A stretch of DNA of 32,811 nt from positions 1 through 32,811 of the forward strand of contig JBHLON010000036.1 in assembly GCA_048940445.1 (NCBI GenBank), in the 5' to 3' direction. This DNA is from Promethearchaeota archaeon (lineage in GTDB: Archaea > Asgardarchaeota > Lokiarchaeia > Sigyniarchaeales > SOKP01). How positions within the stretch are numbered: the stretch's first letter is position 1; each line of letters begins with the position of its first letter. Shown piece by piece: positions 13,477 to 26,810 of the stretch. Both the position numbers and the translations under genes were made by a program. Below the pieces are notes generated by a model. The model saw only the letters and a list, made by a program, of their open reading frames with translations, did not search any database and was not told where the DNA came from.

Positions 13477-14556
13477 TTATACTAATATAATTCCGATCAT
13501 AAAAATAATCAATCCAAAGAGAAAATCGGCAAAAATTCTAAGAATTTTATGAGAAGATTTTTCTTTAATTGTTATATCATTTTTAAAATATGCACCGAAT
13601 TCTCTAAGACCATTAATTAATCCTTCTTTTATTCGAGGAAACTGCCATATAAGCAAAGCTATACTTATTGATAATAGAGGGCAGTATAAGTAAAGTGAAA
13701 AGGGAAAGAAACTATTTCCTTGTAAAAAATTCCAAATTGCATGAGCACTGATAATATTATTAACAGCATGAGCGAATATTGCAGGAAATAACCACCTTTT
13801 TCTTATAACTACCATTGCCAAGATAATTCCAACAAAAAAGGTCTGTATAAACCAGATTAGTGGGAAAATTATAGGAAGATTTATGGTAAATGGAGTAAAA
13901 ATATAAGAAAAATGCCCCAAACCAAAGAAGAAGGAAGATATTACTACAGCAGACATATTATTTACATAATCACTTCCTCTATTGGCTAAAAATCCACGAC
14001 TTAATGATTCTTCATAGATCGCAACACTACTTTGAATTATTAACACTGATATAATGAAATATAGATAACTTTGTAAGAGATATGAGTTATAAGAAGCTGG
14101 AGTCACTTCAGGAAAAACACCAAGAGCAATAGAAAGGTATTCCAACATATTAGGAAAAATTAAATATGTGAAAAAGTCTAATGGTATAAAGACTAAAAAG
14201 AGTAAAAGAAAACCATACAATAATTGATACTTAAAATTTTTTTCTGAAATCTTAAATAAATTGATAAAATTCTTTGAAGGACTAACATCTTCTTTTAATA
14301 TTAATTTTCTTTTTTGTGATTGCAGCGCAAAATTAGATACAATAAGAAAAATAGGAATCGCAGCCAATATAATGAAAGCTCTAAATAAAAAATATAAAGG
14401 TTCATAAGCAGGTGAATTTTCATCTACTATTAATTGAGGAATATACGTAGGGATCAATAAAAATAAAAAAATCCCTAAAAAAATTATTAAAATTTCAACA
14501 AGGAAATAAAATCGTTGTTTAAAAATTAGATTAGCTGTGCTCCTTATTCTAGTCAT
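13477..14556 (-). CDS. CPBP/Abi (type II CAAX protease-like) intramembrane glutamic/metalloprotease
   Basis: Multi-TM protein with EESLSRG, FFGLGH and AHAVNN motifs. Confidence 0.85.
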   Translation of the reverse strand: MTRIRSTANLIFKQRFYFLVEILIIFLGIFLFLLIPTYIPQLIVDENSPAYEPLYFLFRAFIILAAIPIFLIVSNFALQSQKRKLILKEDVSPSKNFINLFKISEKNFKYQLLYGFLLLFLVFIPLDFFTYLIFPNMLEYLSIALGVFPEVTPASYNSYLLQSYLYFIISVLIIQSSVAIYEESLSRGFLANRGSDYVNNMSAVVISSFFFGLGHFSYIFTPFTINLPIIFPLIWFIQTFFVGIILAMVVIRKRWLFPAIFAHAVNNIISAHAIWNFLQGNSFFPFSLYLYCPLLSISIALLIWQFPRIKEGLINGLREFGAYFKNDITIKEKSSHKILRIFADFLFGLIIFMIGIILV

Positions 14557-20591: not shown

Positions 20592-21112
20592 GCAGTTATA
20601 TTTAACCACAAATATAAGATATTATAAAATCTATCAACTCCTGAAGAGAGAATTTCCCATAATTCTGCAATAATACTCTGATTTGCTCCCGGCTGAGAAA
20701 ATGATACATTTAACATTTCAGACATCCAGAATTGATTATTAGACAATGTTACTTTAGAAGTATTGTAATAGGACTCTGCACCAATCGATCCTGTTGATGT
20801 TAAAATCGTTTCATTATCCCCTCTTAAAATCTCTACTTTAAAATTGAAATCCCGATTTAAATGGTTTTCAACAGACACATAAAAAGAGACAGTTTCATTG
20901 ACTTTTGCATGTGTTGGATAATTTTCTGCTTTCTTCTCCTTATTTAATAATCCAAAAATTACAAAACCAGGTTCAGGAGTCAAAATGTAATATATTATAA
21001 ACCCGGATACAACTAGAATCCCTATAATTATACTTATTTTAACGATGGTCCCTAATTGCTTTCGGTTTCTTATATTTTCAAATTTTTCTTGTCTTTTTTC
21101 CTCTTTATACAT
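20588..21112 (-). CDS. DUF1616-like membrane-anchored protein (single TM + extracellular beta domain)
   Basis: One TM, then GLLNKEKKAENYPT...VENH...LYLWLNIT. The ATG at 21112 is preferred over 21130. Confidence 0.65.
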   Translation of the reverse strand: MYKEEKRQEKFENIRNRKQLGTIVKISIIIGILVVSGFIIYYILTPEPGFVIFGLLNKEKKAENYPTHAKVNETVSFYVSVENHLNRDFNFKVEILRGDNETILTSTGSIGAESYYNTSKVTLSNNQFWMSEMLNVSFSQPGANQSIIAELWEILSSGVDRFYNILYLWLNITA

Positions 21113-22166
21113 TTTCTCTGAACCATGCAATAGTCTTTTCTAAACCTTCTTTCAAAGGAGTTGTTGGTTCCCAATTTAATATCTTTTTTGCTTTAGATAT
21201 GTCTGGACACCTTCTGATAGGATCATCTATAGGTAATGCCTTAAATATAATATTCGATTTAGATTTAACCAATTCTTTTATAATTTTAGCTAATTCTAGA
21301 ATTGTATATTCTTTATTATTGCCTAGATTAATTACTTCTCCAACAGCTCTCTCATTATAGACCATTTTTAAAATTCCTTCGATTTCATCAACAACATAAG
21401 TAAAAGATCTTGTTTGAGAACCATCTCCAAAAATAGTGATATCTTCATCATTTAATGCTTGAAAAATAAAGTTGGGAATAACACGTCCAAATTCAGGACC
21501 ATGCCGTATTCTAGGACCAGATGTATTGAAAATTCTTACTATCTTTGTCTTTATTTTGTGTTGAAGTTCATAAGCTTTAACAAAAGCCTCCCCAGCCCTT
21601 TTAGATTCATCATAACAAGATCTAGGTCCAACTGGATTCACATGCCCAAAATAATTTTCTGAGGTTGGAACAGCTTCACTCGGGGGATTTCCATAGACTT
21701 CAGAGGTGCTAGTATAAAAGAACAGGGCATTATGAGCCTTAGCAATACCCAAAGCATTCATAGTTCCCAGGGTATTGCTCTTTAATATTGGAATGGGATA
21801 TCTCTTGAACTCAAATGGCGATGCTCTACTCGCCATATGCATTACTATATCTATTTTATTAATATCACCAATACAAACTCCTCTGGGATGATGAGTTAAG
21901 CCAAAATATATTGGTTCGGATATATCGTGATTTAAAAATCTAAAATTATCTTTATCCATCAGATGGGCAATATTAGCAAATCTCCCGGAAGATAAATTAT
22001 CTAAACAAATGCAATACGCCCCTTGTTTGATTAACACATCACAAACCCAAGAACCCAAAAAACCTGTACCACCCGTAACTAAAATTGTTCTATCTTCAAA
22101 ATTTATGCTTTCTTTTCTAAGACGATTTATTATTTCATCTACATCTTGATTTATGCTGTAACTCAT
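21105..22166 (-). CDS. UDP-glucuronate decarboxylase (UDP-xylose synthase)-like extended SDR
   Basis: TGGTGFLG, HMASRASP, STSEVYG, RSCYDESKR, RIFNTSGP, GSQTRSF, DDPIRRCPDI. Confidence 0.9.
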   Translation of the reverse strand: MSYSINQDVDEIINRLRKESINFEDRTILVTGGTGFLGSWVCDVLIKQGAYCICLDNLSSGRFANIAHLMDKDNFRFLNHDISEPIYFGLTHHPRGVCIGDINKIDIVMHMASRASPFEFKRYPIPILKSNTLGTMNALGIAKAHNALFFYTSTSEVYGNPPSEAVPTSENYFGHVNPVGPRSCYDESKRAGEAFVKAYELQHKIKTKIVRIFNTSGPRIRHGPEFGRVIPNFIFQALNDEDITIFGDGSQTRSFTYVVDEIEGILKMVYNERAVGEVINLGNNKEYTILELAKIIKELVKSKSNIIFKALPIDDPIRRCPDISKAKKILNWEPTTPLKEGLEKTIAWFRENV

Positions 22167-22311: not shown

Positions 22312-22932
22312 TTATAAGGTTCGATTTCCACAATATTGACAAAACTTTAATTCTAACGGATAAAGTCTACCACAATTCGAACATTTTTTTAAAGAACTTT
22401 TTAGAATCTCTCTTCCAAGCATTTCAAACACAGCTTCAACATTCTGACCTGTTTTTGAGGATGTACCAATAATCTCACCTTTAAAATTATATTTGAAATG
22501 TATTTTTTCAGCATCTTCTTTAGTAACTTCCCTTTGATCCTCTAAATCAAGTTTAGCCTCTACTAATATCTTTGTTTTAGGAGAATTAGGAACAGAATTA
22601 ATCACTTTTATCCAATCATATAAATCTTTCAAAGATTCTCTATTTGTAATGTCATATAAAATTAACGCTCCCGACGCACCAGAGACATAAGAAGGTAATA
22701 GAAGTCTGAATTTCTTCTCTCCAGCGAAATCCCATTTTAACTGATTTATTGAATAAATAAATCATATATTAAGTAGGATTTCGGTATCATCAACTATTAC
22801 CTTTTTTGTTTCAAAATCCACGCCAATAGTAGACAACGTTGATTTATCAAACTTTCCAGTAGCATAGCGCCTAATGAGAGATGTCTTTCCAACATTTTTA
22901 GCTCCACAAATTACAATTTTGAACTTTATCAT
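22312..22932 (-). CDS. Rab/Ras-like small GTPase with C-terminal Zn ribbon. Two exons (22932..22766 and 22735..22312), 196 aa after removal of a 30-nt intron
   Basis: From the ATG at 22932: MIKFKIVICGAKNVGKTS (G1), STIGVDF (G2), LLNI-[insert with in-frame TGA]-WDFAGE (G3), LILYDITNRESL, EAKLD (G4-like), TSSKTG (G5), CSNC...CQYC. The ORF track shows only the 3' fragment 22312..22632. Confidence 0.88.
22736..22765 (-). other. Putative 30-nt BHB/BHL-type intron in a protein-coding gene
   Basis: RNA AUGAUUUAUUUAUUCAAUAAAUCAGUUAAA. Intron helix UGAUUUAUU/AAUAAAUCA (9 bp), 3-nt bulge AUA, central helix UAAU/GUUA (4 bp), AAA opposite CU, exon-exon helix CGAAAUCCUA/UGGGAUUUCG (10 bp). Cuts AU^A and AA^A restore AAU AUA UGG GAU (N-I-W-D). 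Confidence 0.78.
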
Positions 22933-23126
22933 TTCTCAATATTACCTTTAAATAAATTGTATCTGAGTTTATTTCAATATAATATTATTAATATGAATAA
23001 ATAATTTTATGTTTTCTTTTTTAATTGATTTTAAAAGCACTAATAAATCATTTATTAATTGTCAAAATAAATTTAAGTTATAATCTAATTAATTATATTG
23101 AGTAATCCTATATGAAATGAGTGAAT

Positions 23127-23576
23127 ATGACTCAAGAATCATGGAAATATCTAATAAATGGTAGTTATGTGATGTTAGCCTCTTTATTTTTACCGATTGG
23201 TTATACTTCGCTATGTTGTCCTACAACTCATACTTTCATATGGATGTTTTGTACAGTTTCGGTAGGCAATACCGTAGGAATTACTTGGTTTCTTGAAGGA
23301 CTCCCAAATTTTTGGTTCTTTTGGTTTTATTGGATGCTCTTGATTCCATTCCTAATTATTATAGTCAGTTCGCTTATTATAATAAAGTTAGCAAGAATGA
23401 TTAAACAAGGGAAAATAGTCAAAAAAGAGATATTTACATTGATAATTTTTTTTCAAATTGTGGCTCTATTAATAAATTTGGGTGCCATTTTTGGTCAGGT
23501 ATTTTTTGGATATTTGTCATTTTTATTTGCATTAATCTTACTAATTAAAGGTAACAGAAAGTTACATAAAGAATAA
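23127..23576 (+). CDS. Hypothetical multi-pass membrane protein (paralog 1 of a tandem pair)
   Basis: About 4 hydrophobic segments. N-terminus MTQESWKYLINGSYVM matches the next gene. Confidence 0.7.
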   Translation: MTQESWKYLINGSYVMLASLFLPIGYTSLCCPTTHTFIWMFCTVSVGNTVGITWFLEGLPNFWFFWFYWMLLIPFLIIIVSSLIIIKLARMIKQGKIVKKEIFTLIIFFQIVALLINLGAIFGQVFFGYLSFLFALILLIKGNRKLHKE

Positions 23577-23605
23577 TTAAATAATTCAAAAAACAATTTG
23601 GAATC

Positions 23606-24061
23606 ATGACTCAAGAGATTTGGAAAAATCTGACAAACTGTAGTTATGTAATGATAGTGTCTCTATTAATTCCATCTCACTTTTCTATTCTTGGATTTTC
23701 TTACGGAAGATCAGGCATAACTGTTGGGATACTTCTTTGGATACATGGTTTGTTCTACTCAGGCTATGGGATAGGTTGGATTTGGCAAACAACTTATACT
23801 CGTTATATAGGGGTTCAACTTATAGATTCTCTGTATCTAATAATTATAATTGCGATAAGCTCATATATTCTCGCTCGAGTAATCAAGAAAAAGGAAGCAA
23901 TTAGAAAAAATACAGTTTATGTAATGGTTGGTTTAATAATCTTTCTACAAAGTATGTTATTGTTACTTAATTTAATCATGCGTCCCTTTTTACCATTTTT
24001 TGGTTATTTATTGTGGGTATTTGCTCTTTTTTTATTGGTTAAAACTATAAAAACTTTATAA
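23606..24061 (+). CDS. Hypothetical multi-pass membrane protein (paralog 2 of a tandem pair)
   Basis: MTQEIWKNLTNCSYVM...FFGYLLWVFALFLL, same length and layout as paralog 1. Confidence 0.7.
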   Translation: MTQEIWKNLTNCSYVMIVSLLIPSHFSILGFSYGRSGITVGILLWIHGLFYSGYGIGWIWQTTYTRYIGVQLIDSLYLIIIIAISSYILARVIKKKEAIRKNTVYVMVGLIIFLQSMLLLLNLIMRPFLPFFGYLLWVFALFLLVKTIKTL

Positions 24062-24062
24062 T

Positions 24063-26411
24063 CTAAACTTTATCCTCATTTGTATATTTATAACGACTGA
24101 TTTTAAGAATCTCTTCGGCAATTTTTTTCCCAATATTCTCAACTCGCATCAATTCTCCATAATCTGCATTAAAAATGTTTTGGAGAGATTTTAATTCTTT
24201 CAGGAGATTCTTTGCTCGAAGTGCGTTTACACCAGGTATCCCAGCTACAATATATTCCAATAGATGGTCAATTTCGATAGGTTTCTTTTCAAATCTTAGT
24301 TTTGGTTCTCCCTTCGACTCCGCAAATTCTTTTTTCGCTAATTGGAATAGAAATTTAGCCGTTTCTAAAGAATCCTTAGTCTTATAAATCAATACTCCAA
24401 GATTAAGTATAATCGAAGTAATTGCACCGTAGAGGGCATTTTCATTTATCGCAGAACTCCCAAATGGGTCACCCTCTAAAATTAATATAGGTTTCTCAAA
24501 ATTGTTTTTCAAGTCAAATAATTCATTAAATAGCCTTCCATCTTTTAGAGAATCATTAAAATCTTGGCTGGATTTTCTTTCAATACCTACTCTGTCTGAA
24601 ATTACATAATCTGCTACTTCTAGCTGTTTTAGCTTTAATTTTGCTCCCATAAGTGATAGATTTCTAACAACTGAGGAGGAAGTTTCTCTATTGTCACAGA
24701 TTATAAAAAAACCTTCACTTTCATTTGACTGGATTCTTTCTGATTGAATAGTCTCATTATTTTCTCTATCATTCGTTTGTGAATTTTTTTTTTCAATAAA
24801 ATTTAAGAGATTAGGTTGATCATTTTTCAGAGACGATTCCGATTCTTTCATTTTTTTAAGACTCTGCCTCATATTTTTCTCTTTTGACTTTTCAGCCCAA
24901 TAATAGCCCTCGTCTCGAGTATTTTCTGCCATTAATACGTAAACCTTGCCCTCCTTTCTTCTTCCAGTTCGTCCTCTTCTTTGAATCGATCTTATTGCGC
25001 TTGGTACGACATCATAAAATATCACTAGATCACATTCAGCAATATCCAATCCTTCTTCAGCAACACTGGTTCCTACTAAAGTATTGAAAACCCCTAATTT
25101 AAAGTCTTCTAAAATACTGATTTGTTCTTTTTGAGACAAACCTTTATCATATGATCTCTTCTGTTGCCCTACAAATTTATGGGCCTTAATGATTGGGTGG
25201 TTATCTAAAAATTTTACAATATTATTAACAGAATCCCTAAAATGACAAAAAACTAAAACCCTAGAACTTGGATTTTGCATTAGTTCATGCTGTAATATTT
25301 CGACTAATTTTTCTAATTTAGGATGAATAATACCCTTTGATAAAACAGAATTTACTAAATTATTCATTCTTTTAAATTCATAGTCTCCATAAAGTTCTTT
25401 TAATGATTTATTTGCAGTGTTTTTCTTTATTTTTTCTTCAATTTTTTCTAAATAATCTTTTAATGCGTTGATACCTTGAGTTTCAATCAATTCCTGCATA
25501 TGAGAAAGTCTAATAGCGTTTGAGGTATACTTTTTAGCAGTAAATAATTGTATCTTTTCTTTATCGTCTCGAGAATTGGAAATCTTCTTGTTTATAATGA
25601 AGTTTAATTTTAATAGATCTTTTCTATTAATTTTATTAATATCTGATGAATTTAAAAGTTCTATTTGTTTTAACCATTTAAAAATAGTTCTTAATTTACC
25701 TGTAAAAATGTTACTAATTTCAAGAAATTCATTTGGAAGAACAATTTTGATCCATTCATTATCAACATTGTGGATATATGGTTTTACATCATAATCTGCA
25801 TCAGTTCTGATTTCAATATGATTTATGAACAAATTATTCTTAATTTCATTTATCTTTCCTTCCGTAGACCCAGGACTAGCTGTGAGGCCTAATATTTGCG
25901 TGTTTTTAGCAAGCTCCATGTATTTTTGAGCAATAAAACAATATGCATAGTCTCCAATTGCTCTGTGGCATTCATCGAAGATTATTAAAGATACATCCTT
26001 AATTGTGTAAAGATTGGAAATTATATCGTTTTGTAAGACTTGAGGAGTCATAAATGCGACTTTAGCTTCATTCCAGATGCTCAAACGCTTATTAGGACTA
26101 ATGTCTCCGGTTAATGCTACTAAGTTGGTTTCTGGAATATTAGTTAATTTTAAAAAAGATTGATAGTGTTGATTTACTAAAGGTTTTGTTGGAGCTAAAA
26201 AAATTGTTTTGCTATCTGGTAAATTTGAAAGTCTTTGTACAGCTAACATTAAACCTAGTATGGTTTTACCCAATCCAGTAGGAATAACTACTAAACAGTT
26301 TTTATTCAAACAATTAATAAAAATATTTTCTTGGTATGATCTTCTAATTACCGCATTTTCTTTAATTAAAGGATGGGAAATAAAGTCTTGTTTAGTAGAT
26401 ACGAAAATCAC
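24063..26411 (-). CDS. hef: Hef helicase-nuclease (FANCM/XPF-like: SF2 helicase + ERCC4 nuclease + HhH)
   Basis: PTGLGKT, DECH, TASPG, EEGLDI, QRRGRTGR; ERCC4 motifs DNRE, DY, ERKS; HhH motifs IPGV and VENIG. Confidence 0.93.
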   Translation of the reverse strand: MIFVSTKQDFISHPLIKENAVIRRSYQENIFINCLNKNCLVVIPTGLGKTILGLMLAVQRLSNLPDSKTIFLAPTKPLVNQHYQSFLKLTNIPETNLVALTGDISPNKRLSIWNEAKVAFMTPQVLQNDIISNLYTIKDVSLIIFDECHRAIGDYAYCFIAQKYMELAKNTQILGLTASPGSTEGKINEIKNNLFINHIEIRTDADYDVKPYIHNVDNEWIKIVLPNEFLEISNIFTGKLRTIFKWLKQIELLNSSDINKINRKDLLKLNFIINKKISNSRDDKEKIQLFTAKKYTSNAIRLSHMQELIETQGINALKDYLEKIEEKIKKNTANKSLKELYGDYEFKRMNNLVNSVLSKGIIHPKLEKLVEILQHELMQNPSSRVLVFCHFRDSVNNIVKFLDNHPIIKAHKFVGQQKRSYDKGLSQKEQISILEDFKLGVFNTLVGTSVAEEGLDIAECDLVIFYDVVPSAIRSIQRRGRTGRRKEGKVYVLMAENTRDEGYYWAEKSKEKNMRQSLKKMKESESSLKNDQPNLLNFIEKKNSQTNDRENNETIQSERIQSNESEGFFIICDNRETSSSVVRNLSLMGAKLKLKQLEVADYVISDRVGIERKSSQDFNDSLKDGRLFNELFDLKNNFEKPILILEGDPFGSSAINENALYGAITSIILNLGVLIYKTKDSLETAKFLFQLAKKEFAESKGEPKLRFEKKPIEIDHLLEYIVAGIPGVNALRAKNLLKELKSLQNIFNADYGELMRVENIGKKIAEEILKISRYKYTNEDKV

Positions 26412-26591
26412 CGAAATTGATGAATTTTATTATTATTCGAATATATCTTTTATTAATCTGTTATATAGTTATAGAGTCAATAGAATCTCTTAAATTATAT
26501 TGATAACTTTTTAATAATAAGTTAATAGAGGAATTTGAAATAATTGGAGTTTTAGCTAAATACGCGCGAGTGGTCTAGGCGTTATGACGAC

Positions 26592-26623
26592 ATTTTATAT
26601 ATGATAACTATGAAAAACGTTAT
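26592..26623 (+). other. tRNA intron 1 (32 nt, position 28/29)
   Basis: Central helix GACG/CGUU, bulges AC^A and AU^A, intron helix UUUU/AAAA, outer helix GGCG/CGCU. Removal yields a perfect anticodon stem. Confidence 0.78.
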
Positions 26624-26639
26624 ACGCTCACACCGTGTA

Positions 26640-26671
26640 AATCATCACTAACTAATAGTTTCGATCTCGAC
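26640..26671 (+). other. tRNA intron 2 (32 nt, position 44/45)
   Basis: Central helix CGUG/CUCG (one U-U), bulges UA^A and AC^G, intron helices AUC/GAU and ACUA/UAGU. Removal yields variable loop AGGUC. Confidence 0.72.
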
Positions 26672-26810
26672 GGTCGGGGGTTCAAATCCCCCCTTGCGCA
26701 TTCTTTTCTGATAATATTTATTATTAAATTAGGATACTATGTTTTAAACCAAAAAAGTTTTATTTTATAATGTATTCTAAATTTTAAACACTTTTTTTAT
26801 GGGATAAACC

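Follow-up and report, generated by a model that had tools for sequence, protein, structure and literature searches.

The 32,811-nt stretch of DNA analysed here (the window) carries on its minus strand a gene for a Rab-like small GTPase, whose reading frame is split by a 30-nt insert with an in-frame stop codon, as the original prediction had described. Its neighbours on the same strand include a Hef helicase-nuclease (24063-26411) and an NAD-dependent sugar epimerase/dehydratase (21105-22166); two 151-aa ORFs at 23121-24061 gave no NCBIfam match. The genome has a G+C content of 30% and about 60 small-GTPase matches. The closest named records for a second gene from the same genome are mostly Promethearchaeota, i.e., Lokiarchaeia, which bears out the assignment to an Asgard archaeon. 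The gene and the elements in and around the insert, with the helices located where they had been predicted, are as follows (all on the minus strand).

22932..22312: Rab-like small GTPase gene with in-frame TGA
22766..22932: exon 1, with ATG at 22932, P-loop, switch I and beta-3 strand, as far as base 2 of the Ile56 codon
22312..22735: exon 2, G3 to G5 and C-terminal tail
22330..22383: C-terminal four-cysteine, zinc-ribbon-like tail (from the translation)
22736..22765: candidate intron, 30 nt, layout 1+9+5+9+4+2 nt
22762..22764: in-frame TGA within the candidate intron; without splicing, the reading frame closes after codon 56
22774..22783: exon-exon helix, 5' strand (10 nt), pairing with 22725-22734
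22725..22734: exon-exon helix, 3' strand, formed by G3 motif codons
22772..22773: a further two bases left unpaired across from the 3' bulge, giving a bulge-helix-loop motif
22768..22771: central 4-bp helix, exon strand, pairing with 22738-22741
22738..22741: central 4-bp helix, intron strand
22765..22767: bulge of the 5' splice site, with the cut predicted at 22766/22765 (cut rule from PMC2738675)
22735..22737: 3' splice-site bulge within an internal loop, predicted cut 22736/22735
22742..22764: intron hairpin, 9-bp helix and 5-nt loop, with double-sided changes in seven of the nine pairs among five carriers

With 22765..22736 taken out according to the cut rule, the frame stays open for 196 aa and the translation runs N-I-W-D across the junction; this part of the prediction held exactly. 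Exon 1 matches positions 2-56 of the TIGR00231 profile and exon 2 positions 58-162; PF00071 was matched on both fragments, which places the G-domain profile on both exons and the protein among the small GTPases of the Ras superfamily. In G3, Glu replaces the catalytic Gln, in G4, Ala replaces the Asn of NKxD, and the four-Cys tail, which probably binds zinc, stands in place of a prenylation signal; the GTPase with these features is strongly conserved genus-wide. "Rab-like" is used here as a label only, the Rab family proper requiring the catalytic Gln, NKxD, C-terminal prenylation cysteines and grouping with eukaryotic Rabs. An intact second copy of this GTPase was not found in the genome (93% complete), in which the nearest paralogs are about 44% identical.

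The motif had been described as a bulge-helix-bulge (BHB). The 4-bp central helix and the exon and intron helices on its two sides stood; the strict canonical form did not, because only the 5' bulge is clean, the 3' site being part of a 3x2 internal loop. The motif is therefore a relaxed, AU-rich bulge-helix-loop (BHL), flanked by the 10-bp exon helix and the 9-bp intron helix. Computational folding supports a structured insert region (z = -3.0; none of 200 shuffles was as stable). In the minimum-energy fold (-18.9 kcal/mol), one bulge base is paired, the central helix is 5 bp long and the loop is 1x2; the BHL fold, at -17.7 kcal/mol, lies 1.2 kcal/mol above it and has an ensemble probability of 3% at 37 °C, and in the centroid fold the central helix is open. 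Chance rarely produces the combination of helices: when the insert was placed at random coding sites, the central helix together with an exon helix of at least 10 bp arose in 4 of 300,000 trials, and shuffled inserts at the true site formed the central helix plus a 9-bp intron helix in 5 of 300,000.

At the DNA level, cutting in any of four registers (starts 22765 to 22762) leads to an identical product, so that homology by itself leaves the ends of the insert unfixed. Of these registers, 22765..22736 is the sole one in which a 4-bp central helix bounded by 3-nt bulges can form.

Contigs of four sequencing runs (X1, X2, X5 and X12, of which X1 and X2 may represent the source sample) span the insert with zero differences, which rules out an assembly artefact. 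A MITE or transposon footprint was rejected because no further copy of the insert was found in the genome with up to 6 mismatches allowed, and a self-splicing group I or group II intron because the catalytic core needs hundreds of bases, compared with 30 nt and one hairpin here. In an Rfam search the insert came nowhere near threshold, yielding three chance-level matches only.

A DNA search gave matches in all 36 same-genus genomes drawn. Eighteen same-genus orthologs that cover the site (76-94% amino acid identity) lack exactly these 30 nt and read without interruption, and the spliced 196-aa protein is collinear with them. A pattern scan of JGI metagenomes gave four contigs with an insert at the exact site, of 29, 29, 30 and 31 nt. 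All four break the frame, the same cut rule restores each of them, and no other lesion is present. In the five carriers, i.e., these four and the window copy, the central helix is paired at 4/4 positions, with one position varying between U-A and U-G, and standard pairs make up 99.1% of the pair cells, against 36-50% or less in controls in which the structure was slid along the sequence. Seven of the nine intron-helix pairs show changes on both sides. The covariation score of 0.391 (0.178 in shuffles, none of 500 reaching it) also exceeded the slid controls, in a small sample of five known carriers whose rows are related.

The exon helix is paired at 10/10 positions in carriers and at 7-9 of 10 in intronless orthologs, where Watson-Crick pairs number 3-6, compared with 9 in the window copy (read from the sequence). 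Judged by these counts, the amino acid sequence already accounts for much of the exon helix; we infer that the site is predisposed by its codons and that in carriers the pairing has been tightened at synonymous sites. The dN/dS ratio is 0.04-0.14 for exon 2 and at most 0.07 for exon 1, and it stays low between carriers that differ at 60-73% of synonymous sites. By this measure, both exons are under purifying selection.

In a nucleotide tree (midpoint root, modest support), the carriers are scattered among intronless genes, a distribution that needs either repeated precise loss or repeated gain. A strict site pattern run on 161 genomes of the class matched only in the genome of the window; with a looser pattern, run on 400 genomes of the phylum, the other matches read as uninterrupted paralogs (judged by eye).

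In one of the metagenomic orthologs, L056, another insert of 30 nt that contains a stop follows about 19 nt downstream (about 1021-992, minus), and removal of both inserts gives a full 194-aa protein. The exon helices of the two introns use the same exon strand, so the folds are mutually exclusive, and the two introns would probably be spliced sequentially. By exon sequence, L056 and L057 are sisters; the intron hairpin of L056 resembles that of L055, and the hairpin of L057 resembles that of the window (26 of 30 positions identical). This mismatch between hairpins and exons, seen in a few sequences, may reflect exchange of intron sequence between lineages. In another ortholog, L009 (genome G023), the first 11 GTPase codons are out of frame in the alignment; a frameshift, a misassembly or a further insert may be the cause.

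Seven further inserts of this kind were found in six other genes of the same genome, and their removal restores conserved motifs.

G000:C61:8911-8940 (L024:2912-2941): AIR-synthase-like gene, 30 nt, strictly canonical BHB
G000:C61:46028-46065 and 46116-46144: uL11, two inserts of 38 and 29 nt
C78:74291-74261: mevalonate kinase (mvk), 31 nt
C47:64002-64031: fwdA, 30 nt
C21:44709-44679: rubredoxin, 31 nt
C10:about 14379-14410: metG, 32 nt, relaxed motif with uncertain exact ends

The GTPase intron thus appears to be one of at least eight in the genome rather than an isolated case. Eight is a lower bound: in a de novo genome scan based on the motif and frame rescue, only the GTPase and AIR-synthase-like introns stood above background, and the weaker inserts in mvk, fwdA, rubredoxin, uL11 and metG were missed. 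For uL11, metG and mevalonate kinase, a second copy is absent from the assembly, and the profile matches are split at the insert or begin right after it; a reading of these three genes as pseudogenes seems hard to hold.

The AIR-synthase-like intron has the same 1+9+5+9+4+2 layout as that of the GTPase and an unrelated sequence. Among 81 Lokiarchaeia loci, 18 carry it, in 12 of them as 30 nt with a stop and in six as 29 nt. The central helix in carriers is always 4/4, the spliced proteins are full-length, and compensatory changes occur; the intron is patchy on the tree (10 changes). One intronless copy (L082 / L035, from genome G032) has Ser at the junction and retains the flanking codons of the carriers, the pattern that a deletion between the 4-nt direct repeats would leave. 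The other nested intronless copies have Thr, matching precise loss.

The genome encodes two EndA paralogs, alpha (G000:C3, L021:1168-1773) and beta (G000:C62, L022:1423-2040), and one RtcB. The best PDB match of the catalytic EndA subunit is the Aeropyrum pernix enzyme (E = 3e-38), and the alignment covers the Crenarchaea-specific loop, with Lys-Pro-Arg (K-P-R) at positions 44-46, and the Tyr/His/Lys triad. Loops of the crenarchaeal type have been linked to the cleavage of relaxed motifs (PMC12397907), and the host EndA is probably of a type able to cut such motifs, with RtcB available. The tRNA-Val(CAC) gene of the window (26564-26700, plus) becomes clean only after the removal of two non-canonical 32-nt introns (26592-26623 and 26640-26671, plus), one of which has a central helix of 3 of 4 pairs. 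If this tRNA is used, the cell must process relaxed motifs.

On these data, the GTPase insert is most probably an mRNA intron of the tRNA type, in bulge-helix-loop form, spliced by EndA and RtcB and one of many in the lineage; we put the probability of this reading at about 0.9. The original proposal of a spliced mRNA intron gains support from the same-site inserts of 29-31 nt, the compensatory pairing, the purifying selection, and the presence of both enzymes. In the proposed mechanism, the transcript would fold into the 4-bp exon-intron helix with a 3-nt bulge at each end, and the two-subunit EndA would cut past the second base of each bulge, at 22766/22765 and 22736/22735. RtcB would then ligate the exons, making both the Ile56 codon and the beta-3/G3 strand of the 196-aa GTPase whole again, while the 30-nt piece would be set free and possibly circularised; RNA left unspliced would give a 56-aa stub. 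Many genes of the lineage would share in a set of such introns, 29-38 nt long and gained or lost precisely, of which this one would sit where exon codons already tend to pair.

The same observations bear on four other explanations. A regulatory role, in which EndA cuts the RNA mostly as an off-switch or a condition-dependent step and the intron controls GTPase output without being constitutively removed, would fit the relaxed motif with its competing fold and the early stop in unspliced RNA, and removal of the 5' UTR intron of Haloferax HVO_1309 appears to matter for expression (PMC7714728). However, most orthologs, including the nearest, have no intron, and similar introns occur in unrelated housekeeping genes, for which neutral gain and loss fits better; we regard such a switch as quite improbable, and the intron is most likely a tolerated passenger and not a regulator. 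Still less probable is translational bypass, in which the ribosome halts at the hairpin and hops over the insert in uncut RNA, as in phage T4 gene 60. The stop codon does directly follow the last exon codon, inside the hairpin, and take-off and landing codons are the same in the AIR-synthase-like and rubredoxin inserts. In the GTPase, however, take-off AUA and landing AAA do not match, nor do the codons in mvk, fwdA and both uL11 inserts. The AIR-synthase-like junction is also informative, since splicing would give Thr and a hop Ser: among 63 intronless orthologs, Thr is found in 58 and Ser in one. Hopping would also leave the conserved 4-bp helix with its 3-nt bulges unexplained.

The possibility that a hairpin-forming insertion simply inactivated one of the roughly 60 small-GTPase genes has in its favour that many paralogs could buffer the loss, that the insert is absent from the closest relatives, and that an insert-bearing match to the site pattern was seen in only 1 of 400 Asgard representative genomes. 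Relaxed dN/dS or further lesions would be expected to accompany such decay; instead, dN/dS does not exceed 0.14, four diverged orthologs carry same-site inserts with no further lesion, the intron helix has compensatory changes, and similar inserts interrupt the single-copy uL11, metG and mevalonate kinase genes. The pseudogene reading of the GTPase is already largely refuted by these comparisons, and we consider it extremely unlikely. Stop-codon readthrough would be compatible with the 30-nt length of the window copy, which keeps the frame, and removal of the insert at the DNA level with the 3-nt repeat that flanks it. Yet the 29- and 31-nt inserts of orthologs put the frame out of register, and 10 added residues would split the beta-3/G3 strand; for DNA excision, the insert has no second genomic copy, and no joint skipping it is listed in the four runs, from whose contigs rare forms can drop. 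These two routes have a close to negligible probability.

Extending the EndA/RtcB reading beyond this gene, we consider genome-wide, spliceosome-free mRNA splicing by these two enzymes in Lokiarchaeia to be highly probable. A broader scheme, in which such splicing is combined with introns mobile between lineages and genes, ordered splicing of multi-intron messages, and splicing efficiency that controls the output of signalling proteins such as this GTPase, seems unlikely as a whole.

A close known parallel is the intron in cbf5 pre-mRNA of Desulfurococcales and Sulfolobales (Watanabe 2002; Yokobori 2009, PMC2738675): like the GTPase intron it is short and lies within the coding sequence at a conserved motif, its BHB is often unconventional, with the cut falling between bases 2 and 3 of the bulge (PMC2738675), and it likewise comes with a hetero-oligomeric EndA and patchy gain and loss. 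The cbf5 case concerns one gene with cDNA-confirmed splicing, whereas the Rab-like GTPase has an Asgard host, with splicing deduced from sequence, and a genome with at least eight such inserts, two of them in some genes. Introns in other archaeal protein genes had been predicted and were unconfirmed as of 2009 (PMC2738675), and according to a 2020 paper, cbf5 was the only mRNA case besides a 5' UTR intron of Haloferax (PMC7714728). In the latter, HVO_1309 of Haloferax volcanii, an mRNA similarly loses a short BHB intron, of 46 nt, to EndA, and the intron was found as circular RNA and cut in vitro; unlike the GTPase intron, it lies outside the coding sequence and breaks no frame (PMC7714728). 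Non-canonical tRNA introns of Asgard archaea share with our case the BHB-type boundaries, repeated gains and two-subunit EndA; the 2026 preprint describing them deals with tRNA genes only, and the term "mRNA" is absent from its main text (bioRxiv 10.64898/2026.10.13.758758).

No report of mRNA introns in Asgard archaea was found in the literature searched, the coverage of which excludes most subscription journals. The mechanism is known; the papers that could be searched do not describe it for this host lineage, for so many genes or for messages with several introns. In eukaryotes, HAC1 and XBP1 mRNAs lose a short frame-changing intron independently of the spliceosome; IRE1 cuts at two stem-loops in a regulated stress switch, and a tRNA ligase (RtcB in animals) joins the exons. 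With IRE1 acting at stem-loops and EndA presumably acting at a BHB, the likeness to the GTPase intron is at most an analogy.

Archaeal protein-gene introns are regarded as almost absent, the papers found giving cbf5 as the single case in a coding sequence, besides a single case in a 5' UTR. If the inserts are spliced, many mRNAs, essential ones among them, are already processed by tRNA-splicing enzymes in the prokaryotes most closely related to eukaryotes. This would bear on how introns are tolerated in a cell that transcribes and translates in one compartment, and on the ancestry of mRNA splicing that depends on RtcB. There is also a practical side: Asgard gene catalogues would miss or fragment such genes, those for eukaryotic-signature proteins included. 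As had been anticipated for automated pipelines, gene callers give this GTPase as 56-aa and 106-aa pieces, and it is stored in this form in public gene calls. Annotation of the tRNA genes shows a similar effect, in that ARAGORN miscalls tRNA-Val(CAC) as a tRNA-Ile with one intron. Only 13 tRNAs were called in the genome, and this low count suggests more hidden introns.
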